Source: Dethiobacter sp. (GTDB lineage: Bacteria > Bacillota > Dethiobacteria > DTU022 > UBA8154). Taken from it: a stretch of DNA of 64,000 bases. The notes beneath the pieces were generated by a model, which did no database searches, was not told the origin of the DNA, and was given only the letters and a program-made list of their open reading frames with translations. Of this stretch, positions 21,886 to 41,110 are shown piece after piece. Numbering within the stretch: the first letter of the stretch is position 1; the number at the start of each line of letters is the position of its first letter. The stretch lies in NCBI GenBank assembly GCA_020725665.1, contig DYEO01000002.1:6451-70450 (forward strand), in the 5' to 3' direction. Made by a program: the position numbers and the translations under genes.

Positions 21886-21970
21886 GCGGGCGTGGCGGAA
21901 CTGGCAGACGCGCAGGACTTAGGATCCTGTGGGGCGACCCGTGGGGGTTCAAATCCCTTCGCCCGCACCA
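21886..21970 (+). tRNA. tRNA-Leu (anticodon UAG), type II, CCA encoded
   Basis: Acceptor GCGGGCG/CGCCCGC; anticodon arm CAGGA-CTTAGGA-TCCTG; long variable arm; TTCAAAT T-loop; CCA at 3' end. Confidence 0.85.
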
Positions 21971-22134: not shown

Positions 22135-23937
22135 TCAAACTTTAACATTTGACGGACTGCGCCGGATCACCATACCCTTCTTTTGCGCCGTTGCCAGGAG
22201 TTCTCCCCCCTGCATGACAATCTCGCCGCTTTTCACCGTAAATACGGGCCAGCCGGTCAGTTCCTTCCCCTCGTAGAGGGAGAAGTCGGAGCGGGAGGCC
22301 AGTTGCAGCGGGTCAACCTTACGGCGCTCCTGCAGATCCACCACGACAATATCGGCATTACTCCCCGGCAAGAGGGAACCTTTGGCAGGATAGAAGCCAA
22401 ATATTTCCGCCGGACGTAGGGATGTAACCTCTGCCAGCCGGGTAAGGTCAATGCGCCCCCTGTTTACACCTTCACTTAACAGGGAGGGTAGATGGGTAGC
22501 CAGGGCCGGATAACCGGGCAGGGCTTCCGCCATACCTTTATCCACCATTTTTTCCGCAAGCGTAAGCGTGGCGTTATCCGTCCCCACTGTATCTATGATT
22601 CCTTCACGCAGGCCCTGCCAGAGAGCTTCGCGATCTTGCGGGGACCTGAAGGGTGGGGTCATCTTGCCCCGCGCACCGAGCAGCCAGTCCGTATCGATGG
22701 TCAGGTACGGCGAGGTAGTCTCCGCATAGAGGGAATAAGCGCCGCCACCTCTTTCGCGGTATCTGCGTATTACTTCTATGCTCTCCCGGGCGGACAGGTG
22801 TACCAGATAAATGGTAACCCCGCAACTCCGGGCCAGCAGCACAGCCCTTTTTACCGCCTCTTCCTCCGCCAGGCTGGGCCGTGTCAGGGACCAGGCCTGC
22901 AGGTCGTTATCCTGCTCCACCTGCCGGCGGTGTTGGGCGGTTGAACGCTCCACGATGTGGGAATTTTCAGCGTGGATGGCAATACTCACATCCCGGCAGC
23001 CTTTAACCTTTTCAAAAACATCCAGGATTTTATCATCATGCATGTGGGGGATTAGCCCCGGGATGCCGCACATAAATATTTTAAAAGAAGTTATTTGCAA
23101 ATGTTTGATGTAGGCGGGAATTTCCTCCACCTGCCGCGGTGTGGTGATGATCAGATGGGGGAATATGTCGATATAGCTGTGCCGTTCCACCATCTCCACA
23201 AAAGAAGGCAGGTAGTCAAAATATGATTCTTCACTGTAGAGCATACAACCGGCCGCCGTAACGCCGCCCAGCAGGGCTGAGGCTGTTTCCTTCTCCATCT
23301 CCTCCCGCATATCGCCGAATATTCCCAGATGGATATGCGGATCCACAACGCCGGGCAGCACATACAGGCCCGTTGCATCGATCATCTTCTTTCCCCGGGC
23401 CTGGCCGCTAACACTGATGGCGGCGATTTTACGACCGCTGACCTCCAGGTCTCCCCGGAACACACCGAGGCGGGGAATCACCAGGTAACCATTTTTGATT
23501 ACCAGATCCGCTTCCCCCGGAAGCACCCCACCGGCGCCCTTTAAGTAGGCGATCTCTTTTTTTATCTGCTCCAGCTCACCCTGGAACGATGCAAGGGAAG
23601 CAGCACTAGCCGGGATCGGGGGTTTCGCTCCCGTTTCCCCGGGCAAAGGGGAAGGCAGCAGCGATAGAGGAGACAGTGGCGGGGGCGGCAAAGCAGCCCC
23701 GGTAAAAGCGTCTCCGGCAACAGGCAGGCTTTCCTGCGCCGTCCCCCCGGCCCCGCTCCCTCCCTTAACTGACACACTGCCACTCCTGACAGGGTTTTTA
23801 ATAATACGTATCTCCAGCTGCGCCGCCCGCTCCAGCGCCACGTCCGTAACAACATCGTCAGCGCCGATCATGAATTCCTTGTTCCCCAGGCGGGCAGCCA
23901 TCTCCAGATCCAGGGCGGTAATAATTCTTTTGGGCAA
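22135..23937 (-). CDS. Cyclic amidohydrolase (dihydropyrimidinase / hydantoinase / allantoinase family) with an N-terminal targeting module and a Pro/Ser/Ala-rich linker
   Basis: VDPHIHL, KIFMCG, IHAEN, YLVHLS metal-dependent amidohydrolase motifs. TTG start (MPKRIITALDLEM) 16 nt after the BMC-T stop, with a GGGGGGAG RBS. The N-terminal 40 aa are homologous to the N-terminus of the class-V PLP enzyme at 24911-26263. Confidence 0.75.
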   Translation of the reverse strand: MPKRIITALDLEMAARLGNKEFMIGADDVVTDVALERAAQLEIRIIKNPVRSGSVSVKGGSGAGGTAQESLPVAGDAFTGAALPPPPLSPLSLLPSPLPGETGAKPPIPASAASLASFQGELEQIKKEIAYLKGAGGVLPGEADLVIKNGYLVIPRLGVFRGDLEVSGRKIAAISVSGQARGKKMIDATGLYVLPGVVDPHIHLGIFGDMREEMEKETASALLGGVTAAGCMLYSEESYFDYLPSFVEMVERHSYIDIFPHLIITTPRQVEEIPAYIKHLQITSFKIFMCGIPGLIPHMHDDKILDVFEKVKGCRDVSIAIHAENSHIVERSTAQHRRQVEQDNDLQAWSLTRPSLAEEEAVKRAVLLARSCGVTIYLVHLSARESIEVIRRYRERGGGAYSLYAETTSPYLTIDTDWLLGARGKMTPPFRSPQDREALWQGLREGIIDTVGTDNATLTLAEKMVDKGMAEALPGYPALATHLPSLLSEGVNRGRIDLTRLAEVTSLRPAEIFGFYPAKGSLLPGSNADIVVVDLQERRKVDPLQLASRSDFSLYEGKELTGWPVFTVKSGEIVMQGGELLATAQKKGMVIRRSPSNVKV

Positions 23938-23953
23938 ACTGCTCCCCCCTTCG

Positions 23954-24601
23954 CTATTTGGCCTGCAGGCTTGCGATAGCGTTTTGGGCAGCATCCATCG
24001 CCGTTTTAACCAGGGATTCATCCCCGGAGAGATAGAGGCGGCCGTAGCGTCCCACCGGATCGAAGTGTACTATTCTTATATCCGCATTTTTCTCCGCCTC
24101 ATTGACCGCATGGGTGATATAGACAGCCGGTTCCACCTCCATGATCAGGAGGGACTCGGAGGGGACAATCATGGAACCCTGGCGGAAACGGTTGATCAAC
24201 TGGGCCTGGTAGGGACTGATGTTGTTAATAATCTTGGTTGATACAATTTGCGGCATTATTTTATCAGTTTGATGCAGGTTGTAGCGGCTCAGGATAGCGT
24301 GGCCCGCTTCCAGGACACCGTCCACGGACTCGGAATGAAGCTCGATCATCCCGAATTCCCGCTCCACATCCTGGAAGCCGGAGCGGGCCTCCCCGCTTTT
24401 GAGGGCAATATCGAGCATGCCGTATACTTCGGAGCCGGGCGCGATCTCCAGCCAGAGCTGGGCCATACCCGCCATGGGGACATCTCCCCGGGAGACGGTC
24501 CCCAGGAACGCGGCATACTGGGGCTGCATACGGTCAATAAACACGTACGTTCTCAGAACAATATTTTCACCCACCTGAATTCCTCCTTCAGCAGCGGGCA
24601 A
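23954..24601 (-). CDS. BMC-T shell protein (tandem BMC-domain protein, EutL/PduB-like)
   Basis: 215 aa; DIALKSGE and DAAQNAIASL segments typical of permuted tandem BMC domains; lies inside the shell-gene cluster. Confidence 0.65.
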   Translation of the reverse strand: MPAAEGGIQVGENIVLRTYVFIDRMQPQYAAFLGTVSRGDVPMAGMAQLWLEIAPGSEVYGMLDIALKSGEARSGFQDVEREFGMIELHSESVDGVLEAGHAILSRYNLHQTDKIMPQIVSTKIINNISPYQAQLINRFRQGSMIVPSESLLIMEVEPAVYITHAVNEAEKNADIRIVHFDPVGRYGRLYLSGDESLVKTAMDAAQNAIASLQAK

Positions 24602-24896
24602 AATCTATTTCATCGATAATCGCCACAATGGCAGCATCCACGGGAAGCGCCTTCTCCTGCGGCAATGTTGTGCCCACAGGTTCGCCGCTGCTTAAAACAA
24701 GCTGGGCGGGACTTCCCGTGGTTACACAAACAAGGCTGCCCAGCCCCGAACCGAAAATATCCACCGCCACGAAGGGTTCACCCCGTACCTTCTTTTTCTC
24801 CGGGGAGTACTCCTGCACGATGGCCAGCTTGTAGCCGGAAAGTCTCCTGTCCTTGATCGTGGAGACCACTGCACCGGTTACTTTGGCTATGATCAT
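24588..24896 (-). CDS. BMC-P vertex protein (EutN/PduN/CcmL family)
   Basis: MIIAKVTGAVVSTIKDRRLSGYKLAIV...VAVDIFGSG, the EutN/CcmL fold signature. Confidence 0.8.
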   Translation of the reverse strand: MIIAKVTGAVVSTIKDRRLSGYKLAIVQEYSPEKKKVRGEPFVAVDIFGSGLGSLVCVTTGSPAQLVLSSGEPVGTTLPQEKALPVDAAIVAIIDEIDFARC

Positions 24897-24910
24897 TTAT
24901 AAACCCCCCA

Positions 24911-26263
24911 TCATTTTCGCAAAAGCCCGGCCAGGCAATCCATGACATGTTTGAGATTTTCCTTTGTGGTATAAAAGTGGGGTGCAATACGAATGGCATT
25001 GCCCCGGGCCGAGGCGATGATGTTATGTTTTTTCAGGTCAATCTCCACCTGGTGCGAGTCATCCACCCTGATCGCCGTGGTGGAACCTTTCTTTTTAACA
25101 TCCAGGGGACTGAGCAGCTCCAGGCCCCGCTCCTGCGCCAGCCCGATCGTATACTCAGAAAGCATGTTGATCCGTTTTTCAATGTTTTTTGGCCCGACCT
25201 CGTTGATTATTTCCATGCCGGCACGGGCGGCAAAGGCGGTAAGGACCGGCGGCGTCCCCGTGTCAAAGCGGCGGCTGTCGGAAGCATAATCGAGGTAACG
25301 CACCTGGAAGGAGAAGGGATTCTCCTGGCCGAACCAGCCGGTTACGGCCGGTTTGAGACAGGAAATAAGATCTTTTTTTACATAGATAAAGGCAATTCCC
25401 GGAATCCCCAGAAGATATTTCAGATTACCGGAGGATAGTATATCAATATCCATCTGCTTGACGTCGAGATCAACCGTACCGAGCGACTGGTAAGCGTCAA
25501 CGTAAAAGAGAGAGCCCTTTTCGTGAATGATCCGGGCAATGGCTCCCAGGTCCTGTTTAAAACCGTTCTGATAATAGACATGCGTCACGGAAGTGAGCAC
25601 AGTCTCCTCGTCCAAAAGACGGCGGTAGTCCTCCAGCAAAATCTCACCGTTGCGCACGGGGACGTAATCCACCTTGTAACCATATTTCTGACTGGCCAGC
25701 CAGACGTGGCCCACCGTGGGGAATTCCGCCTCTGTGGTCAGGATACGCCGTCTGGCCCCCAGCGGATCCAGGGCACTGGCAATGGATGCAGTAGCCTCCG
25801 ACACGGAGGTGGAGAGGGCGATCTCGTCGGGGCTGGCGTTAATCAACCGGGCAAATTCATGCTTGGCCTTAATTGTTTCCTCGATCCAGTACTCCCAGTC
25901 CATACCGGCTGTCAGCCAGCTATCAAGGTAATCTTCAATAGCCCGGCGCACTCTTTTGGCCTGGGGGGCCTGAGAGCAGTTGGCCACGTGAATGGTATGG
26001 GCCAGCAGGGGGAACTCTCCCTGCCAGCGGCGGGCAAAATCCTCGGAAAGCACATCCGCCCCTGTATTTGCGGGAGAACTTTGCTGTGTCGCAGCCGGAG
26101 TCCGATCCTGCGGCGATACTGCTGCCCTGACCAGGCTGATACCCAGGCGCCGCGCATTTTCTTCCGCTATCGCCGTTACAATGTCGTTTTCCCCGTATTC
26201 CATAACCGTTTTGCCTGCTTCTTTGCATAGCTCTATATCCCAAGCGGTAATGATCTTCTTCAT
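24911..26263 (-). CDS. Class-V PLP-dependent enzyme (aminotransferase/C-S-lyase family) with an N-terminal BMC-targeting-like module
   Basis: PLP-lysine region SSGNLKYLLGIPGIAF. N-terminal MKKIITAWDIELCKEAGK...VTAIAEENARRLGISL followed by an S/P/A/T/Q linker. RBS AAAGGGGGGAG. Confidence 0.7.
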   Translation of the reverse strand: MKKIITAWDIELCKEAGKTVMEYGENDIVTAIAEENARRLGISLVRAAVSPQDRTPAATQQSSPANTGADVLSEDFARRWQGEFPLLAHTIHVANCSQAPQAKRVRRAIEDYLDSWLTAGMDWEYWIEETIKAKHEFARLINASPDEIALSTSVSEATASIASALDPLGARRRILTTEAEFPTVGHVWLASQKYGYKVDYVPVRNGEILLEDYRRLLDEETVLTSVTHVYYQNGFKQDLGAIARIIHEKGSLFYVDAYQSLGTVDLDVKQMDIDILSSGNLKYLLGIPGIAFIYVKKDLISCLKPAVTGWFGQENPFSFQVRYLDYASDSRRFDTGTPPVLTAFAARAGMEIINEVGPKNIEKRINMLSEYTIGLAQERGLELLSPLDVKKKGSTTAIRVDDSHQVEIDLKKHNIIASARGNAIRIAPHFYTTKENLKHVMDCLAGLLRK

Positions 26264-26347
26264 TTAAGCGATCTCCCCCCTTTCATGCCGCAAAACACCC
26301 GTCACTCATGCCATTTGGCAGCAAACATCGCAGCAACGCGGTGCGGT

Positions 26348-26635
26348 TTATTCTCCCTTACTATTAAGGTTTTTAAGAATAAATGCCTCTATTTCGGCAT
26401 GGGGCCGGGGAATAACATGCACGGACAATACTTCTCCCACACGCTTGGCAGCAGAGGCTCCTGCATCGACAGCAGCCTTCACCGCCCCCACATCTCCTTC
26501 CACGATGACTGTGATATATCCTGCACCAATGTTCTCCTTCGCCAGCAACTGCACATTGGCCGCCTTAACCATGGCATCAGCCGCTTCGATAGCCGCAACC
26601 AGGCCCTTCGTTTCGATCAAACCAAGAGACTTCAT
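26348..26635 (-). CDS. BMC-H hexameric shell protein (PduA/EutM family)
   Basis: [28 protein letters not shown], the canonical BMC domain. Confidence 0.9.
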
Positions 26636-26699
26636 TGTTTAAAACCCTCCTCATGCAGAGCTATTTAATTAAATTGTATTGAACATATCGAAAAGTTTC

Positions 26700-26715
26700 T
26701 GTTAAAAAGACTACA
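26700..26715. promoter_or_regulatory. Crp/Fnr-type palindromic site TGT-N10-ACA (site A) at about -41.5 of the BMC operon promoter
   Basis: TTCTGTTAAAAAGACTACAAAA. rc TACAAT -10 hexamer (approx. 26673-26678) lies 21 nt from the site edge; coordinates +/-2 nt. Confidence 0.45.
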
Positions 26716-26799
26716 AAAGAGGAAATTCAGCAGCAAATCCCGAATAATTATTTTAAAGCGTTAATTTAATCAGATTTGGGGAGAGGAGGTTACCTGAAG

Positions 26800-27513
26800 A
26801 TGAACGCCGGCAGCAAACATGGGGGCAATTTTAGCGGATCTGCTTACCATTATTCACCCTGGTTTCGCCGAGGTGTAGCCTGCTGGGAACCTGTTTTCGA
26901 AAAATGCCCGCAAAAAAGTGTGCGTAAAAACAGCATTATTTTCAGCCAGGAAGAGGTAAACGAATCCGTCTACTTCATCCACAAGGGGCGGGTAAGGTTA
27001 TCATCGTTTGATAAAAACGGGAATGAGAAGTCCATCGTCATCGTCTCCGAGGGAAACATCATCGGTGAGGTGTCCGCCAAGGAAAGGATCCCGGCCATCG
27101 TAACGGCTACTGCCGTTACCGATTGTACACTTTTCTACATGCCCAGCGATCTCTTTTCCCAGAAGGTCTTAGCCAGCCCCGTTTTAAGTGAACGGCTTAT
27201 CCTGGAACTGATGTACCTGGTCCGTATTCTAACAGGTCATATACGGGATATATCCTTCATGGACGCAAGTGAGCGGGTGGTTACCTACCTGTTCAAGCTC
27301 TCCAACAATTACGGCTTGGATACACCCCAAGGACGCAAGATCACTATCCGTTTTACCCACCAGGAAATGGCCGATCTTACGGGCACCTGCCGCGTCACCG
27401 TCTCCAAAATCATGAAATCCCTCGATAAATCAAAAGTCATCAAAAAAATCGACGGCCACCTCTATATCCTCGACGAAGCTTACTTTCAAAAAATTATGGA
27501 AGAGGTCTCCTGA
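26800..27513 (+). CDS. Crp/Fnr-family transcriptional regulator
   Basis: cNMP-binding beta-roll (FIHKGRVRLSS...GEVS) plus a C-terminal HTH (QEMADLTGTCRVTVSKIMKSL). Start moved to MNAGSKHG with a GAGGAGG RBS. Confidence 0.8.
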   Translation: MNAGSKHGGNFSGSAYHYSPWFRRGVACWEPVFEKCPQKSVRKNSIIFSQEEVNESVYFIHKGRVRLSSFDKNGNEKSIVIVSEGNIIGEVSAKERIPAIVTATAVTDCTLFYMPSDLFSQKVLASPVLSERLILELMYLVRILTGHIRDISFMDASERVVTYLFKLSNNYGLDTPQGRKITIRFTHQEMADLTGTCRVTVSKIMKSLDKSKVIKKIDGHLYILDEAYFQKIMEEVS

Positions 27514-27514
27514 C

Positions 27515-28240
27515 TCATTTGCCAAAGCCAACATAGGGCGGGGCATGTACGGCGTGTTCCAGCATCAGGGCGGCACCCGTAATGTCAAAAACAGGGAGTT
27601 GGTACTTTTCCTGTAGAGCATGGCTGTAGGTTGCCAGGTTGCTGCACTCCAGGAGGAGGGCCTGCACCCCCTTGTTTTTCTGCAACAGCTTCCCGGCAGC
27701 GGCCAGTACATCCCGGCACATCAGGTCCACATCGAGAGCCGTACCGCCCTCGATAACGATCTCCCGGAAATGGGGTTCCAGCTCCATGCCCTGGATTTCC
27801 AGGTGGGTTTCCGAGCCGATCCCCGCAGCGCGCAGGTGCTGCTCCTGCAGGAGACCGGCATGCCCGGTAATGATGCCGATGGCTCCTTTTCGTCCCACAA
27901 GGTTCCAGAGCAGGGGCACGAGCACCAGGGCTGAGGTGAGTATGGGCAGGGATCCGCCCGATGCCAGTTCCTGCTGGTAAAGAGCCATGAGACCGCAGTC
28001 GCCGATAACCGCCCATATACCTTTTGCCTTCAGCTTCTTTACCGCGCCCAGCAGTTCATTTTTTATCCCTTCCGACCCTTCGATCAGGTCAGAAAATGAC
28101 CCTTCCACCACTTCGTAGCAAACAGGGAAGGGAAACGTCTTGGCGTGACCCGGATCCCCGGGGACGCGAGGCGACTTACCTTGAAAAACCAGGACGCCCA
28201 CACGCTGGCCGTAAAATGGAAAACCCTTTGCAACTTTCAT
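27515..28240 (-). CDS. Asp/Glu/hydantoin-racemase superfamily protein
   Basis: About 240 aa; Cys-containing half-site motifs (VIGDCGL, LLECSNL) typical of the PF01177 family. Confidence 0.55.
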   Translation of the reverse strand: MKVAKGFPFYGQRVGVLVFQGKSPRVPGDPGHAKTFPFPVCYEVVEGSFSDLIEGSEGIKNELLGAVKKLKAKGIWAVIGDCGLMALYQQELASGGSLPILTSALVLVPLLWNLVGRKGAIGIITGHAGLLQEQHLRAAGIGSETHLEIQGMELEPHFREIVIEGGTALDVDLMCRDVLAAAGKLLQKNKGVQALLLECSNLATYSHALQEKYQLPVFDITGAALMLEHAVHAPPYVGFGK

Positions 28241-28329
28241 CGGGCTGTATCCTTTCCACTTAATTTCCTGTAACTACCCAGATTAAAGATGATCTGTCAC
28301 ACCGCGAAGCAGGGGGTCAAACGGTTCCA

Positions 28330-29544
28330 TCATCTTCCCCTGAGCAATAATAATTTATTTTTATTTAAAAGATCAGCGGTGATCTCCAGTAGCCTGTCAA
28401 TGTCCTCCCTGCTGTTGTAGCAGTGGGGCGAAACCCTGATACCGCCCACACCGGAAGTATAGCGCAGGGAAACAAAGACTCCTTCCTGCGTCAGGCGGGC
28501 ATTTAATTTTCTCTCCTCTTCCAGGCCTCCCGGCAGGGTAAAAGAAGTAATCCCTGAACGATGCCGGGGCTCCCGGGGGCTGACTAGCCTGATTCCCAGT
28601 TCCTCCAGGCCGGTAGCCAGCACATCGCCCAGTTCCCTAACCTTCTTTTCCACGGCTTTTATGCCCGTTTCTTCCAGTTTTTTCAGGCTGTGACAGAGGG
28701 TCAGGGCGCCAAGGTAATTTCCCGTCCCCCCCGTTTCAAACTTCCGGGCCGTCTCTGCCAGCTCCAGTCGGTCAAAGGGCGTGCGCAGGGGTGATTCCAG
28801 ATATTCTCCCCATCCTCCCTCCGGCTCAAGGGCGTTGAAATAGCTGTAGAAATCCGGCTTTAGGAGGGGCAGAAGATTTCTGTTAACATAAAGAAAGCCC
28901 ATGCCAAAGGGATTGCGCAGCCACTTGTGCCCCCCGGCACAGTAAACGTCCACCTCCGTTTCCCCCAAATCCACAGCCAGGGCGCCCGCTTCCTGGATTC
29001 CATCCACAATCAACAGGCAACCGTGCTCCCGGGCCAGCCGGCTGAATTCCTGCAGCTCCACCCGGAAGCCGTTTATCTCCTGCACGGCGCTGATTACGAT
29101 CGCTTTGGTGTTTTCGTCGATGCGGGCGGCAAAATCGGAAACATCCACCCTGCCGTCCTTTGTGGCCACGGCGCGAATCTCGAAGGGAATTTTCTCACGC
29201 CTCGCCTGCCAGCAGAGCGTTGTGGCAAAAAACTCCAGGTCGCAGATGAGGATATTGTCTTCCTTTTCCAGGGGCAGGCTGCCGGCAATGAGGCCGAGTC
29301 CGTGGCTGGTGCTTTCCACCAGGGCAATCTCCTCCGGCGTCACGTTCAACAGACGGGCCGCCTCTGCCCTGGCCCGGGCAAAATAGCTGTAAAGATGTAC
29401 GGTAAAATCCGTGGGAGGGATATGAATATTTTGCAGGGAAGCGATCACTTGTTTCGCTTCTTCCGCAACTTCGGGATCGATTAAACCCATGCAGGCCGTG
29501 TCGAGATAGGTTATTTTGTTGGAGGAAAGATCTATGTTTTTCAC
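28330..29544 (-). CDS. Class-V aminotransferase / cysteine-desulfurase-like PLP enzyme (no targeting module)
   Basis: PLP-lysine motif YCAGGHKWLRNPFGMGFLYV; fold-type I class V. Confidence 0.7.
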   Translation of the reverse strand: MKNIDLSSNKITYLDTACMGLIDPEVAEEAKQVIASLQNIHIPPTDFTVHLYSYFARARAEAARLLNVTPEEIALVESTSHGLGLIAGSLPLEKEDNILICDLEFFATTLCWQARREKIPFEIRAVATKDGRVDVSDFAARIDENTKAIVISAVQEINGFRVELQEFSRLAREHGCLLIVDGIQEAGALAVDLGETEVDVYCAGGHKWLRNPFGMGFLYVNRNLLPLLKPDFYSYFNALEPEGGWGEYLESPLRTPFDRLELAETARKFETGGTGNYLGALTLCHSLKKLEETGIKAVEKKVRELGDVLATGLEELGIRLVSPREPRHRSGITSFTLPGGLEEERKLNARLTQEGVFVSLRYTSGVGGIRVSPHCYNSREDIDRLLEITADLLNKNKLLLLRGR

Positions 29545-29658
29545 TTGACGCCTCCAAAATTGTTGTAACGCTGTTGCCCCCCCGGGTTGCTGAGAGCAAA
29601 CAGCGCTACAACAATCTTAATAACTATTGCCGGTACAGAAGCTACAACAAAAGTTGCG

Positions 29659-30042
29659 CTATAAACTTAACGGCTTTTGCGGCTGCGCGATGGCTTTTTC
29701 TTCAACCTCATAAGCCTGATCATCCATATATTCCCGGCCCCAGCCCGTATAATTATGGCATAAAACATAACCAAGAGCAGCGCCCAGGAACCAGGCCATG
29801 AGCATAATGGCCACCATTTCGGAAGCCATACCCTTAATCATGGCATCGGCGCACTGCCTTACATTCTTAGCCAGGATCAAAGCCACCACTATGCCGGCAA
29901 GCGTCGGCACCCAGAAAGCCATGGGTAACGGCGCCCCGGCAAAGGCCAACCACACAATACCGATAAACAACACTAAAAAGGGCAAAATCAGGCCAAACAT
30001 ACCAACATGAAACTCAAGCCTTTCTTTCGACATTTCACCCAC
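29659..30042 (-). pseudogene. Probable N-terminal fragment of an NhaC-family Na+/H+ antiporter
   Basis: First about 90 aa resemble the NhaC N-terminus (GAPLPMAF...AMIKGMAS...MVAIMLMAWFLG); the ORF is only 127 aa where about 470 is expected. Confidence 0.35.
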
Positions 30043-30127
30043 TCTTCAAAGTGTTGTAAAGGGGAAAGCACAGGAGCACCGTTTCCAATGAGTCATACTG
30101 GTAATCTCAACCGGATTCCGGAAATTC

Positions 30128-31642
30128 TTAATTGTTCAGGCTCTCTTTTATCATTTGCCGTGCTTCGTCAGAGTCCATAAAGCCGTGGAACTTGGCGATA
30201 ACCTCCGGCGGTTGCGGCGGGGTCAGATAGGAGACCACCGTGAAGACAATGATGTTAAAGATTAGCCCTACAAATCCCGGGTGCATGCCCCAGGGGTTCA
30301 TCTTGTTGATAAACAGGAAATAAATGGCGATCAACGTGCCCACTATTAAACCGGATATGGCCCCAGCCTTTGTGGCACGCGGCCAGAAGAGGCAGCCCAC
30401 AATGGAGGGGAAAAACTGGCTCAACCCCGCCGTCGATACGGCAACGAGCATGGAGAGGAGCTGGGGCGGCTCCAGAACCGCCCAGGCGGAAAAAATAAAG
30501 ATGCAGATAACCGCAGCCCGGCTAATGCCCAGTACCGTTCTGTCTTTGGCCTTTTTATTTATTGTTTTTTCATATACGTCCCGGCCTATCAGTTGTGCTG
30601 TGGTTAAAAGCTGGCTGTCGGCAGTAGAAAGGGTAGCGCATAAGCCCCCCGCGGCAATGAGGGCCGCCAGCCAGACAGGCAGATATTCAAACGTAAAACG
30701 GGGCAGGATCTGGTCGGCGAATTCAATACCTGGCATGGCTGCCCGTGCACCCATGCCCAACCAGATATAAGACACGTAAATCCACACCAGGTAGAGGGGC
30801 GCCAGAATGGCCACCCACTTGAGCACGCGCAGGGAACCGGCGGCAAACATGCGGATGATCATGTGTGGTGCCGTAATGGACAAGCCGATGGTAATAATCA
30901 CAACCCAGGAAAAAGCCATGGGTAGCTTGAAATAACCGGGAGCTCCCGGCAGGACAAGCTGTCCCGGCGTTTCCCGGTAAATCATCTGCCAGATCTCTCC
31001 CGGGCTGCCCCAAAGGGCCGTGGAAATAAGCGCCCCGCCGACGACGATGGCCAAAAACATGAAGATCCCCATGAAGATATCCGTCCATACTACTGAGCGT
31101 ATGCCGCCGAAAAAGACGTAGATAACCACAAATACGCCCAACCCTATGGCACCCCAGGCATAGGAGATGGCACCAAACGTGGCAAATTCGGCGATCCAGC
31201 CGGCACCGGCCAACTGCATCTGTATATAGGGAATAATGAAGAGTGCGCCTAGAATGCCGATGAGAGCCCTCAGGAAATCGCTCTGGTAAAAATCACCAAG
31301 CATGTCGCCGGGCGTTACATAATCATACTTTTTACCCAGCAGCCAGATGCGGTAACCGAAGATAAAGAGGCAAAGCCCACCGATAATCTGGGTAAAAGGA
31401 CCGAGAGCCCAGTAGGCCATCCCGTGTTTATAAAAGAAACCACCTGTTCCCAGAAAAGCGGAGGCACTGTGATAGGTAGCCGTATAGGTGAAAAAGAGGG
31501 CTACAAATCCAAGCGTTCTTGAAGCGACAAAGAAGTCTACTGTAGAATCGGAAATACGGCGAAAATAGGCAATCATACCGATGCCGAAAGCCAATACCAT
31601 GACCAAAAGGACGATAAATACGGATAAGGAAACATCCGACAT
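30128..31642 (-). CDS. Sodium:solute symporter (SSS family, PutP/PanF-like)
   Basis: 13 predicted TM helices; SSS signature regions. Confidence 0.8.
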   Translation of the reverse strand: MSDVSLSVFIVLLVMVLAFGIGMIAYFRRISDSTVDFFVASRTLGFVALFFTYTATYHSASAFLGTGGFFYKHGMAYWALGPFTQIIGGLCLFIFGYRIWLLGKKYDYVTPGDMLGDFYQSDFLRALIGILGALFIIPYIQMQLAGAGWIAEFATFGAISYAWGAIGLGVFVVIYVFFGGIRSVVWTDIFMGIFMFLAIVVGGALISTALWGSPGEIWQMIYRETPGQLVLPGAPGYFKLPMAFSWVVIITIGLSITAPHMIIRMFAAGSLRVLKWVAILAPLYLVWIYVSYIWLGMGARAAMPGIEFADQILPRFTFEYLPVWLAALIAAGGLCATLSTADSQLLTTAQLIGRDVYEKTINKKAKDRTVLGISRAAVICIFIFSAWAVLEPPQLLSMLVAVSTAGLSQFFPSIVGCLFWPRATKAGAISGLIVGTLIAIYFLFINKMNPWGMHPGFVGLIFNIIVFTVVSYLTPPQPPEVIAKFHGFMDSDEARQMIKESLNN

Positions 31643-31663
31643 ACCTTTTCACCACCTTTATTA

Positions 31664-31945
31664 TTATTTCCAGAGATATTTGGCCGCGACCATGCCGCAG
31701 GCGAGAATTACATGGGACCACAGCGTCAGCCAGAAATAGATGAAAGGAACGCCAAAAACAAACGGCTCAGCCCTGTTTGCCCAGATCAGCCCCGGGTAAA
31801 CCATGAGAAAAGCCACAATACCAACTATGGTCAGCACCCAACCTAACTGTGTGCGGGGCCACAAATAGGTATGGGCTTTAATCAGGCGGTACGATTCCTC
31901 GTAAGATGCGGCCGTTGCTTTGCTTACTTCAACTTCTGGTTTCAT
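31664..31945 (-). CDS. Small membrane subunit associated with SSS transporters (DUF4212-like)
   Basis: 93 aa, 2 TM helices, placed immediately upstream of the SSS gene. Confidence 0.45.
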   Translation of the reverse strand: MKPEVEVSKATAASYEESYRLIKAHTYLWPRTQLGWVLTIVGIVAFLMVYPGLIWANRAEPFVFGVPFIYFWLTLWSHVILACGMVAAKYLWK

Positions 31946-32246
31946 GCTTATTCACCTCCAACTTATTATGAGTAGTTTAAGAAAGTCATAATCCCTCTAT
32001 CCACGGTGCTTTAAGCGCAGTGGATAGATATTTTTCACCCCCAAACGGGGTGTTTTTGTATTAGGCATTAATTTGCTGATATCCAGTGATATAGCGAGAT
32101 TATCAGCGATATATGGCATTTTTCTCTGCTCAAGGCAGTATATCAAACTTGACATTTACGGATCGCCACCAAAATTGAAATATAGGTATTAATTAACATT
32201 ATTTCCAGGAGGTGTCGGTTATGTTGGACCATGTACGCGGTCATCC

Positions 32247-33524
32247 ATGATGAGTACTTGTGTTTCATGTTGCCCCGGATTAGAAAATTATTTCTGGAAA
32301 AACCCGGGACAGGTCCTGTTTTATCTCGATGCGCCGCTCAAGGCTTATCTGCTGAACCTGGATAGAGGCATCGAGATTTTACAGGGGTGTTACTCTAAAG
32401 ATTTCGGCAGGCCGGCTGTTTTTGACCCGGTGGATATGCTCCGATCTTTAATTCTTATGGTGTCACTTAAAATTACCTGTGTTACCAAATGGGCTGATGA
32501 TCTCACCAAAAGTGATGTGCTGGCTATTTTATGTGGTTTCGAGCCGGGCAAGACTCCTTCCGCCTCCGCTTTTTACGATTTCTGGAACAGGTTGTGGCTG
32601 GAAGACAAAAGGCTGAGAAAAAAACGTAAACTAAGGATTAGGATAAAGAGTAAGCAACCGAAAAATGTGCAGAAAGGGCAGAAATTGCCCAACAGGCGCC
32701 CGGGGGGGATAGACTCGTCAGGTCTTTCCGTAAGGGAAGATTTTTCTCCACCAAACGTCCCGAGCGGCTGCTGCAGGAGCTGTTCACCAGGGTCTTTGTT
32801 CAAGGCTCCAGGGATAGAAATATTATCCCTGTTTCTATGATACTAACCGGTGACGTATTTCTGGGGCAGAAATCTGTATACGTTTTCCTGTGTTAATGGT
32901 GAAGATGAACTGCCGGTATTTCTTCGTTTTGGACAAGGCTCCAGGCATGATAGTGTGGTTTTTGCGTTCAGTGTGGTGGAAGCGTGGTCCCTTTTTTCTA
33001 AGGCCGGGCTTAATGTCAGCGTTTTCATCGGTGATTCGGCGCACGATGCTAACCCCTTATATGCACTGCTGGATGATTACGGCTCCAAGCCGGTTATTGC
33101 GCTGAATAAAAAGCCTTCATCTCTTATCCCTTTAAATGAGCAGGGTATTCCTCTTTGTCCTAAAGGGTTTTTAATGCAGTACTGGGGATTCGGTGAGAAA
33201 AAAAGCCGGTTCAAATGGCGCTGCCCTAAAATCGTCGGTAAAAAAAGGAACAGGAACAAAATTGATTGTACAACGCCCTGCACAAACTCCAGCTACGGCT
33301 TTACTTGTTATACCAACCCGGAGTGGGACCGGCGTATCTTTACGGATATCCCCAGGGGGTCGGCTGTCTGGAAACAGCTATACAGTGCATCTGGATGCCT
33401 GGATTGCACAGGAACTGGAGCTTTCAAAGCTCGACAAAAAGGCACTGCTGCTGCGCGTTCTGTGAGTTGGCACGGCCGCTGCCTGTGCGTAGGCGCAGCG
33501 GCTCTTGATTTTGGACACTTGTAG
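32247..33524 (+). mobile_element. Frameshifted IS5/IS1182-family transposase remnant (DUF772 N-terminal domain plus DDE domain)
   Basis: ORF1 GRPAVFDPVDMLRSLILM matches the DUF772 N-terminus; ORF2 (32850-33524, a different frame) carries the DDE region (GDSAHDANPLYALL...). Confidence 0.6.
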
Positions 33525-33917
33525 TTGCTTTTGATAGTAATGATTGTACCCTGCACGCTTTTTTTGGAAAGGAGGGCTGCTTTAGCCTACCGATTATTGG
33601 TGTTTTCAAAGAGCAAATTGATAACTTATGGCATTAATGGTAATACATGCTAATTCCAACGGCCTCAATCTAATAAACTGCTTAATGACTTTCTGAACAC
33701 ACTCATTATTTGTGGTTTAGAAACACAATAAAACACCCAACTCTACACCTTTACACTGCCCAACTGACTGTCAACTGTAAATCCTTTTTCCCTTTACCTC
33801 ATAAATCACCCCCTTGCCTTAAAAGAATTATGCAAAAAACAAACGCAAGAGAAAATTCATGATATATTATAACCCCATCCATTTAATTTAGTTTACTGAA
33901 TTTTTACTATTAATTCT

Positions 33918-33933
33918 GTAAAAAAGACTACAA
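33918..33933. promoter_or_regulatory. Crp/Fnr-type site TGT-N10-ACA (site B) with a minus-strand -10 (rc TAAACT) 21 nt away; orphaned promoter
   Basis: TTCTGTAAAAAAGACTACAAAA, identical core to site C; coordinates +/-2 nt. Confidence 0.4.
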
Positions 33934-34116
33934 AAATATGGTTTGTCCAGTCCCATTTGTACTAAAATTGCCGTTATTTTTCAGGTGCTCCTCAATATTG
34001 GCTGTGGTAAGCCCTACTACATAGCAAGGAATAAAAAAATCGTTGTAACACTGCTTTGCCAAACAATGCCACAACGATTTAAAAAAAGCAATTTCGACCC
34101 AGTTCAACAATCAAAA

Positions 34117-35556
34117 CTATTTGCTTTGACTACCCGTTAAAGTGCTTGCCGCATCCTTTTCTTTTACTGCTAAACTAATAACAACAAGAAGGATTAAACC
34201 AATAACGGCGCCGGCGGCAGCACCGGCAATACCCCAGGGTTTGTTAAGATCCCAGATTATTGCCGTGATACAGCCAGCGACCGTTCCCGCGATTGCCCCC
34301 TCTTTTTTTGCACCCTTCCAAAACACCCCCGCGTACAAAGGTGCTGCGATAGCCCCTCCAATTACAGCTGCTTGGAATACCCAGAGGTCCAACATCATTT
34401 TTGGTGGCCGTAAAGCGAGCAGCATACCTAATACACCGATAGTTCCAGTTGCGATACGGCTTATTACAAAAAGCTGTTGCTCCGATACGTCCTTTTTAAT
34501 CTTTGCATAGAAATCCTTGCTAAATATTGTACCCGCTGCAATAAGCGCCGAGTCTGCTGTGGATAAAATTGCCGCGCCAACCGCGCTTAACACAAACCCG
34601 CCAAGGACAGGCGGAAGGTAATTGTTCATGAGCAGGGGAAAGGCATGATCAGCAGATTGTAAGTTAGGCTCTAGAACACGGGCAGCCGAGCCGGCCAAAA
34701 CAATAAAAGTGTAAAATACTACCATGAACGCCCCGGACACACCAATCATACCTTTTGCTGTTAAAGTATCTTTACAAATGAAAAGTCTCATCAAATAATA
34801 CGGGAGCGTGGAGGAGGCCACTACGGCAAATATTACCATACTACCAATGGTAAGCCATGTAAGACTACCTCCCTGATTGAAGCTAACCAGGTCACCGGCG
34901 GATACGTTATTAATACCGCCCGTAACCAAAGCCAGCCTGGCATTAAGGTTGGAAACACTGCCAAACTGCGTTACAATAATATAAATCGTGCCAATGCTAA
35001 CTCCTAACCACAAAATGATAAACTGAATGCCATCGGTCCAGACAACTGATGTCATACCACCAAATGTAGTGTATAAAAGTAAAATGGCTCCTATTAATAG
35101 AACAACCGTAGAATATTCCCATCCAACCAGTTGTTGAAGCACCAATCCGATACCGCGCAACTGCAGTATAACAAAAATACAAAGAATCGCCAGGTAAATG
35201 GCCGCGCTCCACATGGATAAAAACGGGCTCTTAAAACGCTGCTCCAGGTATTCGGAAACTGTTACAGGCCCTAATCGCCTTAGCTCACCCGCAATGAAAT
35301 AAAGGACTAACCAGGCAATTGCTATGGGTATTAATAAAAATGCAAAAAACCCATAGCCCCGTAGATAACTGGTCCCCGTAAAACCTACAATAGTAACCGA
35401 GCTGATGTAAGTGGCGCCAAAACTGCCAGCCGCCAGCCATACACCTAATTTCCGTCCGGCAAGATAATAATCTTCAAGATCTTTAGTTTTAACATACCCA
35501 TAAAACCCCACAGCAAGAACAATAAGCAACATAATTCCAAAAATTAAAATTTGCAA
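34117..35556 (-). CDS. Sodium:solute symporter (SSS family)
   Basis: 13 TM helices; TTG start with a GGAGGGAAG RBS. Confidence 0.8.
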   Translation of the reverse strand: MQILIFGIMLLIVLAVGFYGYVKTKDLEDYYLAGRKLGVWLAAGSFGATYISSVTIVGFTGTSYLRGYGFFAFLLIPIAIAWLVLYFIAGELRRLGPVTVSEYLEQRFKSPFLSMWSAAIYLAILCIFVILQLRGIGLVLQQLVGWEYSTVVLLIGAILLLYTTFGGMTSVVWTDGIQFIILWLGVSIGTIYIIVTQFGSVSNLNARLALVTGGINNVSAGDLVSFNQGGSLTWLTIGSMVIFAVVASSTLPYYLMRLFICKDTLTAKGMIGVSGAFMVVFYTFIVLAGSAARVLEPNLQSADHAFPLLMNNYLPPVLGGFVLSAVGAAILSTADSALIAAGTIFSKDFYAKIKKDVSEQQLFVISRIATGTIGVLGMLLALRPPKMMLDLWVFQAAVIGGAIAAPLYAGVFWKGAKKEGAIAGTVAGCITAIIWDLNKPWGIAGAAAGAVIGLILLVVISLAVKEKDAASTLTGSQSK

Positions 35557-35592
35557 TTTTTCTTCCCTCCGGAATTTAATTAAGTTTAATTT

Positions 35593-35700
35593 TTATTGTT
35601 TCCTAAGACCATCAATATAAAAACCAAGCATGCAAATACTTATTCCGTAAAAAACGATAATACCAAACCATGTACCCCAGGGCAAATTAGCCGGTCCCAT
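35593..35700 (-). CDS. Unannotated 35-aa single-TM protein (MGPANLPWGTWFGIIVFYGISICMLGFYIDGLRKQ) upstream of the SSS gene
   Basis: ATG preceded by AAAGGAGGTG at ideal spacing; not in the ORF track because it is shorter than 60 aa. Confidence 0.4.
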   Translation of the reverse strand: MGPANLPWGTWFGIIVFYGISICMLGFYIDGLRKQ

Positions 35701-35737
35701 AATTTTCACCTCCTTTCGCGAACTTTTGCCGATTGGA

Positions 35738-36493
35738 TCATGCATCAACATTTGTATCCAGTGCAAAAAGTTTACCAGGCCCTTTTGCTTTTTTTACTCC
35801 TGACAATTTTAACATATGCCAAAGAAGACACTGATTACTGGATATTACCGGTTTATTTAAATCAGTTTCAATTAAATTAATTGCCTTCATGGCAGGGAAC
35901 CCGGTACAACTGAGAAATATTGCCTGGCTATCCCGGCAATCAGCCCTTAATGCCAGTTCATAAATATCTTTTTCATTTACATAGGCTATTTCTTCGCCTC
36001 CTTTTAAACCCAACCATGCGTCACCACTTACCGTATAGCCTTCCTTTATAAAATAATTGACTCCTTTTTTATGGATAATTTCTTCATAAGGGCTGCAGAA
36101 CGAAATATTTATAACGCCAAGCACTTTCAATGCGTTTAAAACAGCCGTGGTGGCAGTTGTCACTGGAACTCCATTTAGTTTTGCGCTTATCTCGTTGCAC
36201 AAAACCTTATCATAGTTTTCTTTATAAAAACTTCCGGAAGTGCATCCATAACCTATTACAGAAACTTTGGATAATATCAGTTTTTCTGCCTCAATAATTA
36301 CCTGTTCGGACATTTCCTCTAACAGTTCCAGAGACAAAACATCCCCGGGAGTTCTGGCTCGGGAAAAATGAACTGACACTCCGTCAGGCAAATAATTAAT
36401 GAGATCGCACTCAATAATCGGATTTGGTGACGGTACTATTACACCTAACCTTGCTCGCCAACCAGGACCAACCAAGTTTTCAGGCACGCTCAA
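35738..36493 (-). CDS. Asp/Glu/hydantoin-racemase superfamily protein (maleate-isomerase / arylmalonate-decarboxylase-like)
   Basis: Two Cys-containing half-site motifs (GYGCTSGSF, FLSCTGFP) at the spacing typical of the family. Confidence 0.55.
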   Translation of the reverse strand: MSVPENLVGPGWRARLGVIVPSPNPIIECDLINYLPDGVSVHFSRARTPGDVLSLELLEEMSEQVIIEAEKLILSKVSVIGYGCTSGSFYKENYDKVLCNEISAKLNGVPVTTATTAVLNALKVLGVINISFCSPYEEIIHKKGVNYFIKEGYTVSGDAWLGLKGGEEIAYVNEKDIYELALRADCRDSQAIFLSCTGFPAMKAINLIETDLNKPVISSNQCLLWHMLKLSGVKKAKGPGKLFALDTNVDA

Positions 36494-36648
36494 TTCTCTC
36501 CTTCTCTATATACTTAGCTGTTTTCCACCAATTCTTATTTCCTTATTGCAGAAGACTAACATAATACATTTGTTCCATCTGTTGTTCAGGCTACATTTAT
36601 GAGAATAATAAATATATTATTAATAAACCCTCGTCCTTGCAAGAGATA

Positions 36649-37197
36649 TTAATTACCAGCAAAAGCAGAACCATCCGCACCGGTCAACTGCAGCGACTCC
36701 CGCAGTTGCTCCGGCGTAACCTTGGGAAAATGTACGGCCAGGTACCAGGGAAAGGTCTGGTGCAGCCAGAGTTGGTAACGGTTGGTGAGGGTAAACATGG
36801 CGTCCAGGAGACTACAATATTCTTCCCTGGCTTTCACCTCATCCAGAGAGGCAACGAACTTATTCAGCAACTCCCCGTAGCGTTTCAGGCCGAAATAGCC
36901 GATCACACCACGGCCCACGCCGGTCATCTGACGGGTCATCATTTTAAGCATCTCGAGCGTAAACTCCTGCCGTACGGCGAACACACGCAGATCTGCCAGG
37001 GAATGCACTCCCAGGTTGCGTACTTCGCTGCCTAACATCACCCAGACCGTAAAATACTGGTTATCCACCCCCGCCCCAGTATCCAGTAGACCAAGGCGAA
37101 ATCGCTGCAAATCAGGAGGTTCAGTAAGCCAGATCGCCTCCAACTCTGCGTTGATCTCCTGCAAGAGTGAAAGGACCATGGGATTCAGATCAGCCAT
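36649..37197 (-). CDS. Hypothetical protein, translationally coupled to the upstream ORF (ATGA overlap)
   Basis: 182-aa ORF in an operon; no recognisable motif. Confidence 0.45.
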   Translation of the reverse strand: MADLNPMVLSLLQEINAELEAIWLTEPPDLQRFRLGLLDTGAGVDNQYFTVWVMLGSEVRNLGVHSLADLRVFAVRQEFTLEMLKMMTRQMTGVGRGVIGYFGLKRYGELLNKFVASLDEVKAREEYCSLLDAMFTLTNRYQLWLHQTFPWYLAVHFPKVTPEQLRESLQLTGADGSAFAGN

Positions 37198-37643
37198 CAG
37201 CTCTCCCCCCTTTGCACATGCACGCGCAGAAACCTGCCCGGCTCGAAAAGGAGGTTGTGCCAGACTTTTTCCCCGATACGCAGGAGGGTATCCACGTCTT
37301 CCGCAACCACCTGGGCCAGGGGCAAGGCCGGGACCGGCTCGGTAGGTTGTTCATAATTAATCGCCAGGTATTGAAAAACATGTTCCAGGTTGATACGGCC
37401 GATGGGCTGTTTATCCATAGGTTCCCAGTAGAATTTGGCCTCTGCCGCCTGGGGCAGGAGCAGACGTACGGGAAAATACATCTGACGCCCGGCTACCACG
37501 GCATGGCTTTGGATGCTGGACATGGGCAGGCTTTTTAAAAACACTTCTTTTAGTTCAGCCCACTGCTCTTCCAGCAGGTAAGCCTGTAATGACATCTGCA
37601 ATTCCGGCCAGTGCAGGTGAATCTTATTTTTCTTCATTTTCAC
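37197..37643 (-). CDS. Hypothetical protein
   Basis: 148-aa ORF; 20-nt overlap with the upstream gene; no recognisable motif. Confidence 0.45.
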   Translation of the reverse strand: MKMKKNKIHLHWPELQMSLQAYLLEEQWAELKEVFLKSLPMSSIQSHAVVAGRQMYFPVRLLLPQAAEAKFYWEPMDKQPIGRINLEHVFQYLAINYEQPTEPVPALPLAQVVAEDVDTLLRIGEKVWHNLLFEPGRFLRVHVQRGES

Positions 37644-38145
37644 CCCGCCATTTATAAATCATTTCACAATACGGATCCCCTTTGAGGATGTTCTTTGTTA
37701 ATTGAAATTCAATTTGTGGCTGGTAGCCTTCCCAAATGGCATAATCGATATCACAATACAGCAGTCCGATCTCGTTGGCTCCCAACTCTTTCCATGTATT
37801 GCCAAAAGGACAACGAGTAACATGGGTGATATGGCAATTATTTTCCTGCCTGGTTTCTCCCTGCCAGGCCGAAGAACCGATAGGCAGATCGTGATACTTA
37901 TATTCATTTTCCTGGGTCACCGCAAGCCCCGCTTCCTCGACCTTGTGTCTGACCCTGCGCCCCCGCTCCACGCCAAACGCGTGAATAGCGTCCCGCACGG
38001 CCTGGGCACCTTCTTCACCGAAACGTTCCACCACGGTTCCCGCCAGGTGATAAAACAGGCGTGCCGCATATTCTGTGAGCTGGGCCACCATGATTTCGGG
38101 ATCGGGCGGTGGCGGCAACTTCCTGACGCCTTTTTCTTCAGTCAT
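37624..38145 (-). CDS. Possible L-2-amino-thiazoline-4-carboxylate (ATC) hydrolase-family protein
   Basis: About 170 aa with conserved Cys positions (RCPFG, LLYCDID, DPYCEM) recalled as characteristic of the ATC_hydrolase family. Assignment is from memory and needs an HMM check. Confidence 0.35.
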   Translation of the reverse strand: MTEEKGVRKLPPPPDPEIMVAQLTEYAARLFYHLAGTVVERFGEEGAQAVRDAIHAFGVERGRRVRHKVEEAGLAVTQENEYKYHDLPIGSSAWQGETRQENNCHITHVTRCPFGNTWKELGANEIGLLYCDIDYAIWEGYQPQIEFQLTKNILKGDPYCEMIYKWRGENEEK

Positions 38146-38196
38146 TTTTTGTACCTCCTTTTTAAGCTGTCTTTTACATCTTGCCCTGAGAAGTTT

Positions 38197-41084: not shown

Positions 41085-41110
41085 GCATTGCCTGTAACCT
41101 GTTAAATTGT

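Follow-up and report, generated by a model that had tools for sequence, protein, structure and literature searches.

Which factor switches on the genes of a BUF3 bacterial microcompartment (BMC)? Few microcompartment types lack an aldehyde dehydrogenase; BUF3 is among them, and no substrate has been assigned to it. We addressed this question in a stretch of 64,000 nucleotides from contig DYEO01000002.1 of Dethiobacter sp. (assembly GCA_020725665.1; hereafter, the window), in which a BUF3-type operon lies beside a divergent gene for a Crp/Fnr-family regulator, and in which a first-pass annotation had noticed three near-identical sites (A, B, and C) with a TGT-N10-ACA core. Our analysis makes it likely that the three sites are operators for a homodimer of the adjacent regulator and serve as upstream elements of activator-dependent class II sigma-A promoters. 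The sites, their uniqueness and conservation, their fixed spacing to a -10 hexamer, their linkage to the regulator gene, and the residues of its recognition helix were all read directly from the DNA. This would be the first predicted regulator, operator, and regulon for a BUF3 microcompartment.

Sites A, B, and C and their promoter geometry

The 22-mer TTCTGT(T/A)AAAAAGACTACAAAA (in full, as searched, TTCTGTWAAAAAGACTACAAAA) occurs in three exact copies in the window, where none is expected. All three are on the minus strand: site A at 26697-26718 (exact match TTCTGTTAAAAAGACTACAAAA, read in the direction of the operon as TTTTGTAGTCTTTTTAACAGAA, with its 16-bp core TGT-N10-ACA at 26700-26715), and sites B and C at 33914-33935 and 40825-40846 (both an exact match to TTCTGTAAAAAAGACTACAAAA, read in the operon direction as TTTTGTAGTCTTTTTTACAGAA). 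Site A has TGTTA where sites B and C have TGTAA. The near-identical triple and its core were thus as first described, without a fourth copy in the window; the positions given at that time (26695, 33912, and 40822) were 2-3 nt too low. All three sites are intergenic and share one orientation relative to the minus-strand operons.

No further copy of the 22-mer was found in the window, even with up to three mismatches, and 100 dinucleotide-preserving shuffles yielded zero matches. The genome has a G+C content of about 51%, so that three copies of an A+T-rich 22-mer are not an effect of composition. A search of the window with the degenerate palindrome TTYTGTAR-N6-YTACARAA (two or fewer mismatches) added one weak match, at 52890, which lacks the ACA. 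We also derived a position weight matrix (PWM) from 14 non-redundant sites of this and related loci. Sites A-C scored 35 bits; elsewhere in the 64-kb window the highest score was 14.8 bits, and in a further 10 kb of the same contig no score exceeded 15.3 bits. The scores were bimodal, with the true sites at 20-35 bits and everything else in the 74 kb at about 15 bits or below. When 241 million metagenome records were scanned for the 22-mer, two matches were returned; one was a chance match within a UDP-glucose dehydrogenase gene, and the other was on a 2.4-kb contig without interpretable context. The Rfam scan of the whole window revealed three tRNAs only, and no riboswitch or leader RNA was found at the sites.

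Each site is followed on the minus strand by a predicted -10 hexamer. That of the BMC-operon promoter is TACAAT (26673-26678), 21 nt after site A, with an inferred start at about 26666; TAAACT (33890-33895) follows site B by 21 nt (predicted start about 33883), and TAAAAT (40800-40805) follows site C by 22 nt (predicted start about 40793). The first-pass annotation had described minus-strand hexamers at 21-22 nt, which are present, and had read the one after site C as TAAATT, which is not what the DNA says. This spacing is conserved in the orthologous loci described below. In the first 15 sites collected, TAnnnT begins exactly 21 nt past the ACA in 13 cases, and no other offset between 0 and 59 nt accounts for more than three of the 15. 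Three loci added to this set (L012, L025, and L026) have the hexamers TATAAT, TATTAT, and TAAAAT at 21 nt, for a total of 16 of 18 sites; the remaining two, site C of the window and the site L008-2, have a spacing of 22 nt. The 21 nt between site and hexamer are not conserved in sequence.

With the hexamer at -12 to -7, which assumes that transcription starts 7 nt after it, the 16-bp core occupies -49 to -34 and is centered at -41.5. A promoter scan found no complete sigma-70-type -35/-10 pair downstream of any of the three sites, and the TTWACA half-site, at 21 nt from the -10 hexamer, is too distant to serve as a -35 element. The DNA therefore has a dyad predicted to lie near -41.5, no canonical -35 element, and a nearly fixed -10 register, as expected for class II promoters. 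The class II geometry proposed earlier gains from the conservation of the 21-nt spacing far above chance, and a class II arrangement at sites A-C, with starts placed from the hexamers, is supported at the sequence level.

The sole conserved asymmetry of the sites is a G-A-A flank on the promoter-proximal side, at about -33 to -31, which coincides with the G-A of the -35 hexamer and may be a residual sigma contact. On the side of the regulator gene, neither site A nor its orthologues were found to have a -10 hexamer in a fixed register; the start codons there are 23-172 nt from the site. Because the regulator start codon is only 23-84 nt away in several loci and this side has no fixed register, autoregulation of the divergent regulator gene, in the form of autorepression, is possible.

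The regulator and its orthologous loci

The proposed binder of sites A-C is a Crp/Fnr-family regulator of 237 amino acids encoded on the plus strand at 26800-27513 (the NCBI protein, P0001, starts at 26800). Pfam annotation confirmed this gene, which had been described as divergent from the BMC operon: the cNMP_binding domain scored 64.7 bits (cut-off 27.5) and HTH_Crp_2 scored 50.3 bits (cut-off 27). The protein has the cyclic nucleotide monophosphate (cNMP)-binding-type beta-barrel and the C-terminal winged helix-turn-helix (HTH) of the Crp/Fnr superfamily, and 89 relatives with solved structures were found. NtcA was the best of these (2xgx, E = 6e-18), and CprK and PrfA were among them.

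The recognition helix reads R-V-T-V-S-K in the regulator, R-V-T-V-T-R (RVTVTRLL) in NtcA, and R-E-T-V-G-R in CRP, and R180, E181, and R185 of CRP, the residues that read its box, align to R, V, and K of the regulator. In the family alignment, the HTH segment FTHQEMADLTGTCRVTVSKIM is invariant or nearly so among members that are 33-100% identical overall; its invariance across the members at 33-56% identity is what one would expect if the DNA target had not changed. The 11-member family alignment has no invariant cysteine. In a profile search of 1.84 billion cluster representatives, 213 matched at E <= 1e-30. Among the best 151 full-length matches, the first position of the helix is Arg in 149 and the second is Val in 136, and 105 carry an N-terminal S/N-P-W motif. 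In the window regulator this motif is formed by residues 19-21, inside Y-S-P-W-F and ahead of the beta-barrel, and it has no counterpart in CRP or NtcA. These residues suggest that the regulator belongs to a sizeable and apparently uncharacterised Bacillota subfamily of Crp/Fnr proteins with an NtcA-like reading head.

The regulator has few near relatives: a word-indexed search returned 11 clusters, and orthologues with 35-81% identity were found in at least 10 other genomes. They come from metagenome-assembled genomes (MAGs) of Syntrophomonadaceae, Tepidanaerobacteraceae, and Defluviitaleaceae, from soda-lake sediment contigs, and from other sources. Loci were judged only where the contigs were long enough; in these, the orthologous regulator is always divergent from, and next to, the same five-gene BMC operon. 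The representative L026, obtained through the profile search, has the same arrangement. A dyad is present at the position of site A, in the shared intergenic region, in eight loci (L001, L005, L006, L008, L009, L011, L012, and L026), and its spacer varies: TTCTGTAAAATATACTACAAAA in L001, TTCTGTAAAATATGCTACAAAA in L005, TTCTGTTAAACTGTTTACAACG in L006, TGTCAACCAGATTACA in L012, and TGTAATCTATTTTACA in L026. Every orthologous locus examined has the regulator, the BMC operon, and the site together, and the neighbouring regulator, named earlier as the obvious candidate binder, is a sound one.

Each locus has in addition none to two sites before transporter, aldehyde:ferredoxin oxidoreductase (AOR), or aminotransferase operons. 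They precede a TRAP-transporter, ferredoxin, and AOR operon in L001 (15719), an SNF-transporter, aminotransferase, and racemase operon in L005 (17194), an aminotransferase gene in L008 (6868), and, in L017, a ferredoxin, AOR, and MFS operon (275) and a TctCAB-aminotransferase operon (4516). In a count by column, all 15 of 15 sites have T-T-G-T-A and T-T-W-A-C-A unchanged and differ in the positions in between. Invariant half-sites around a variable spacer are the signature of a site for a dimeric protein, not of a copied repeat.

One locus has the regulator and the site without the shell. L025 (5192-9311; Logan SRR19546412_4545) encodes a 47%-identical regulator, with no BMC genes within 16 kb, and keeps the site, the 21-nt spacing, and the -10 module before an operon for a 122-aa protein, a DUF3311-like protein, an SSF symporter, a 143-aa protein, and a Cucumopine_C protein. 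Judged from these genes, two pairs, DUF3311 with SSF and Cucumopine_C with a protein of about 145 aa, make up a predicted conserved core that is independent of the shell. Despite its family regulator and site, L025 is not a direct orthologue of the arrangement in the window. L013-L020, Crp/Fnr loci at a greater distance (28-32% identity; the helix is SRVTVSKIM in some), had no site of such geometry near the gene and were not counted as family members.

Operons, enzymes, and surroundings

Operon A (22135-26635, minus strand) has five genes, identified with Pfam and NCBIfam, in the same order in all orthologous loci. They encode a BMC-H protein (26348-26635), a class V pyridoxal phosphate (PLP) enzyme with an N-terminal extension (24911-26263), a BMC-P/EutN protein (24588-24896), a CsoS1D-like BMC-T protein (23954-24601), and a hydantoinase/dihydropyrimidinase-like amidohydrolase (22135-24021). 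Site A is within the intergenic region shared by this operon and the divergent regulator gene.

Ten BUF3 loci, mostly from Clostridiales and of unknown function, have been reported (Sutter et al., 2021; PMC8217296, supplement 6). In the parts of that work that describe the type, it comprises a pfam00266 enzyme with an N-terminal extension, a deamidase, and BMC-H, BMC-P, and BMC-Tdp proteins, with no aldehyde dehydrogenase, and its description there names neither a regulator nor an operator (PMC8217296). Our literature search for later work on BUF3 found none. Operon A encodes BMC-H, BMC-P, BMC-Tdp, the pfam00266 PLP enzyme, and an amidohydrolase, and no aldehyde dehydrogenase; it resembles the published loci in its shell genes, its PLP enzyme and amidohydrolase, and its Clostridia-type host. 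It differs from them in that the PFOR/thiamine pyrophosphate (TPP)/CoA-ligase (acyl-CoA-synthetase) genes are absent from the window, whereas they are present in L005, L012, and L026. In the window, this module is replaced by an operon with a tungsten-type AOR and a poly-ferredoxin.

That operon, operon C (34117-40712, minus strand; Pfam and NCBIfam), is the one that follows site C, which is 112 nt upstream of the ferredoxin start codon. It encodes the poly-ferredoxin (40209-40712), the AOR (38197-40104), an ATC_hydrolase-family protein (37624-38145), a 148-aa protein (37197-37643), a Cucumopine_C-domain protein (36649-37197), an Amdase/EutA-like protein (35738-36493), and an SSF symporter (34117-35556). 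An intrinsic terminator with a 20-bp stem (34037-34080, minus strand) marks its end, about 100 nt upstream of site B. The sites in L001 (15719) and L017 (275) likewise precede ferredoxin-AOR operons.

Operon B (27515-31945, minus strand; Pfam and NCBIfam) is the presumed original target of site B; in relatives (L005 at 17194, L008 at 6868, L017 at 4516, and L025), a site comes directly before comparable operons with transporter, aminotransferase, and racemase genes. Its genes encode DUF3311 (31664-31945), an SSF symporter (30128-31642), a 127-aa protein (29659-30042), a class V PLP enzyme, also called an aminotransferase (28330-29544), and an Asp/Glu/hydantoin-racemase-like protein (27515-28240). 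Between the site B promoter and this operon there is an insertion sequence (IS) of 1745 bp (31965-33709, plus strand), with 25-nt imperfect terminal inverted repeats (31965-31989 and 33685-33709), which only 6 nt separate from the ribosome-binding site of the DUF3311 gene downstream of it. Judged by the coordinates, its transposase frame (DUF772 in Pfam, 32247-33524) is broken by an in-frame stop at 32838-32840; the match to DDE_Tnp_1 is weak (E = 0.088), and the NCBIfam search yielded no name. No target-site duplication was recognised. The IS has no second copy in the 74 kb, and in the collected DNA BLAST found further copies neither of it nor of the B and C leaders. Two weak outward-facing promoter-like sites on the minus strand (32207-32179 and 32146-32118), at the end of the IS closest to operon B, point at that operon. 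A search by way of the SSF symporter for an uninterrupted orthologue of operon B gave closest relatives at only 58-61% identity, L025 among them.

The assignment of sites to operons made in the first pass stands for site A (BMC operon) and site C (ferredoxin-AOR operon). The third unit that it gave to site B is presumably operon B, now cut off from its promoter by the IS.

The enzymes encoded in the putative regulon point to a cyclic-amide or unusual amino-acid substrate, if their families are a guide. The amidohydrolase of operon A is hydantoinase/dihydropyrimidinase/allantoinase-like (260 bits, below every equivalog cut-off), and the two class V PLP enzymes are SufS/kynureninase/EgtE-like. 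The others are hydantoin-racemase-family, ectoine-EutA/arylmalonate-decarboxylase-like, ATC_hydrolase-family, and Cucumopine_C-domain proteins.

Several features of the surroundings were also observed. The regulator gene is convergent with the racemase-like gene that ends operon B, a single base lying between the two stop codons (27513-27515), and a tail-to-tail abutment of the regulator gene with an aminotransferase gene occurs also in L005 and L008. Two perfect tandem duplications are near site C: 2 x 14 nt (ATAAAACTCACACC, 40759-40786) inside the predicted 5' untranslated region of operon C, and 2 x 20 nt (TGGGCGGCAAATAACTTGTG, 40943-40982) about 100 nt upstream of the site, towards tRNA-Gln. 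The three-operon region lies between tRNA-Leu(TAG) (21886-21970) and tRNA-Gln/tRNA-His (41010-41187). It had been called an accessory island, and the case for this label is weak: the region is bounded by tRNAs, but its G+C content (0.43-0.61) is not clearly unlike that of the flanks (about 0.5). An A+T-richer stretch (G+C 0.42-0.48) covers about 54000-64000 of the window and positions 1-10000 of L024. It encodes a 1004-aa N6/N4 methyltransferase, a 1069-aa SWI2/SNF2-ResIII helicase, an AAA_15 ATPase, HicAB, a PIN-domain protein, Gp49/HTH, and a phage metallopeptidase; this resembles a region of defence genes or mobile elements and is unrelated to the sites.

Mechanism, alternatives, and known systems

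From the conserved sequences we infer binding by the regulator, activation rather than repression, the transcription starts, and an effector. The promoter module, in the direction of transcription, would consist of TTTTGTAR-N6-TWACAGAA, 21 nt, and TAnnnT. A dimer bound at about -41.5 would stand in for the missing -35 element and recruit RNA polymerase. The recognition helix would use its first Arg to read the invariant G at 7 bp from the dyad and the next residue, Val (Glu in CRP), to read the T at 6 bp. The regulon would be a small catabolic unit made up of the BUF3 operon, the ferredoxin/AOR operon, and the transporter/PLP-enzyme/racemase-like operon, and a small-molecule effector would switch it on. 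In this genome, the IS element has parted promoter B from operon B. Class II activation by a Crp/Fnr dimer is itself a textbook mechanism.

The adjacent regulator could also be a repressor that occludes the -35 region of constitutive promoters and is released by the pathway substrate. The promoter-proximal TTWACA resembles TTGACA, the flanking G-A at about -33/-32 matches positions of the -35 consensus, the site at -49 to -34 overlaps the place where sigma region 4 binds, and the short distance to the regulator start codon in several loci (23-84 nt) makes autorepression plausible. What speaks for activation is the spacing: at 21 nt, the distance between TTWACA and the -10 hexamer exceeds by 3-4 nt what sigma-A accepts, hexamers resembling a -10 are not enriched 16-18 nt downstream of TTWACA, and the scan found no complete promoter. 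A rigid register at -41.5 is the hallmark of class II activation in CRP, FNR, NtcA, and PrfA, and we regard repression as improbable. We hold it to be equally improbable that the sites are real operators for a factor encoded elsewhere, for instance a second Crp/Fnr paralogue with an R-V helix, in which case the adjacent regulator would have other targets. Such a helix is common (Val in 136 of the 151 closest 50%-cluster representatives), paralogues of similar specificity may coexist in one genome, and binding by the adjacent regulator is a prediction. Yet gene and site co-occur in every orthologous locus, including the one without BMC genes, the site is always in the regulator's own upstream region, its recognition helix matches the box, and a second Crp/Fnr gene was not noticed among the open reading frames annotated between 22 and 41 kb.

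The least probable alternative, to which we give almost no weight, is that the 22-mers are a repeat without a dedicated regulator, spread by mobility or recombination as a repetitive extragenic palindrome (REP)-like or miniature inverted-repeat transposable element (MITE)-like sequence or as a duplicated promoter cassette. It would account for the identity of the three copies, including their non-palindromic spacer, and for a similarity that runs on for about 40 nt on the -10 side. A dispersed repeat would not be expected to show what we found: three copies only in 74 kb, all at operon starts and in a single orientation, and only two matches among the metagenome records, one of them the chance match within a gene. 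Flanking inverted repeats or target duplications are absent, and distant orthologous positions keep the half-sites and change the spacer. A motif search of the kind that had been suggested as a way to expose stray copies thus speaks against a dispersed repeat, which is largely refuted within the 74 kb and the metagenome scan.

Some observations weigh against operators for the adjacent regulator as the explanation of all three sites. The spacers of sites A-C are identical in this genome, which taken alone is also compatible with a copied promoter cassette, and site B has at present no gene directly downstream. Some operons beside orthologous regulators lack a recognisable site, among them the PFOR operons of L012 and L026. 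The 18 sites are not 18 independent observations, since many share descent, and they represent roughly 9-10 lineages. The 2-oxoglutarate pocket of NtcA is formed by residues R87, R128, and E133 (Synechococcus elongatus numbering); R128 and E133 of the C-helix align to L140 and T145 of the regulator (phmmer), and the alignment of R87 is ambiguous, its loop being 2 residues shorter in the regulator. As R128 and E133 are not conserved, the effector cannot be inferred by analogy with NtcA.

With sites A-C as operators of the adjacent regulator, a wider reading can be put forward tentatively, as something possible rather than probable. The regulator, the box, and the -10 module would delimit the full BUF3 regulon, which would be an undescribed anaerobic pathway for cyclic amides or N-substituted amino acids under the control of a pathway-specific ligand, and the regulator would be the first assigned member of an SPW/R-V subfamily that uses the NtcA reading code. 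The shell would then enclose a hydantoinase-like cyclic amidohydrolase and a class V PLP enzyme, and outside it would be AOR or PFOR, the hydantoin-racemase-like, Amdase/EutA-like, ATC-hydrolase, and Cucumopine_C proteins, and interchangeable transporters. A conserved operator allows the genes co-regulated with the shell operon (AOR/PFOR, racemase-like, and transporter genes) to be listed from sequence in each genome. Such lists narrow the candidate substrate, and the regulator with its ligand is a handle for the induction of the organelle. A DNA-reading code so far deemed a signature of cyanobacterial NtcA would also be in use in a large Bacillota subfamily, and the pairing of an Arg-Val helix with GTA-N8-TAC would give a box-helix rule for predicting the regulons of uncharacterised Crp/Fnr proteins.

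Among known systems, the first-pass annotation had compared the sites with CRP/FNR boxes. They share the TGT-N10-ACA frame with the CRP class II promoters of E. coli, as well as the position at -41.5 and the absent -35 element, and the two regulators share a dimeric winged-HTH fold family and the Gly-Glu and Arg of the nucleotide-binding loop. The resemblance to the CRP box (TGTGA-N6-TCACA) does not extend further: position 4 of the half-site is A and not G, position 5 is not fixed, and Glu181, the CRP residue that reads this G:C pair of the half-site, is replaced by Val. The regulator scores 70.5 bits against the CRP equivalog NF008732 (cut-off 266), and cAMP is unlikely to be its ligand. The box is not the TTGAT-N4-ATCAA of FNR either; the cysteine cluster for [4Fe-4S] is not conserved, and the score against NF008365 is 32 bits (cut-off 228). 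With the score for NtcA given below, these values, all below the curated cut-offs, rule out orthology of the regulator to CRP, FNR, or NtcA.

CprK (dehalobox), PrfA, and Bacillus Fnr are pathway-specific Crp/Fnr activators of Firmicutes that are encoded beside their target genes and act through a palindrome at about -41.5. The arrangement in the window is alike in having a dedicated Crp/Fnr regulator beside catabolic genes and several neighbouring operons. It differs in the box (TTAAT-N4-ATTAA, TTAACA-N2-TGTTAA, and TGTGA-N6-TCACA, respectively, in the three systems), in the effectors, and in the target pathway.

The closest likeness in DNA reading is to NtcA. By its sequence, the box is of the NtcA type (GTA-N8-TAC; TGTA-N8-TACA), neither of the CRP nor of the FNR type, and this fits the Val that the regulator has in place of Glu181 of CRP. 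The sites read TGTA-N8-TACA or TGTW-N8-WACA and the helix reads RVTVSK, residues from which binding of the NtcA kind is predicted. Canonical NtcA-activated class II promoters have GTAN8TAC centered at about -41.5 together with a TAN3T -10 hexamer (PMC3898017). In the structure of NtcA with DNA at 3.0 Å, R186 forms a hydrogen bond with the invariant G at 7 bp from the dyad, the thymine methyl group at 6 bp is in contact with V187 and T190, and the change V187E abolishes binding (PMC11850224). In our collection of sites, exactly these two positions are invariant, as G2/C15 and T3/A14 of the 16-mer.

As proteins, the two are of one superfamily without being orthologous (67.5 bits vs. the TIGR03697 cut-off of 244.95). 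NtcA is the global nitrogen regulator of cyanobacteria, whereas the regulator of the window comes from the MAG of an anaerobic member of the Bacillota and is of a local pathway type. It has the N-terminal SPW motif that NtcA does not, the DNA-contacting R142 of NtcA is not conserved in the alignment, and we know of no PipX partner for it. Thr190 and Arg191 of NtcA are conservatively replaced by Ser and Lys, and Arg and Val open the recognition helix in both proteins. Their promoters have the same TGTA-N8-TACA box, the same 22-nt spacing from TAC to TAN3T, and the same class II architecture, GTA-N8-TAC-N22-TAN3T.

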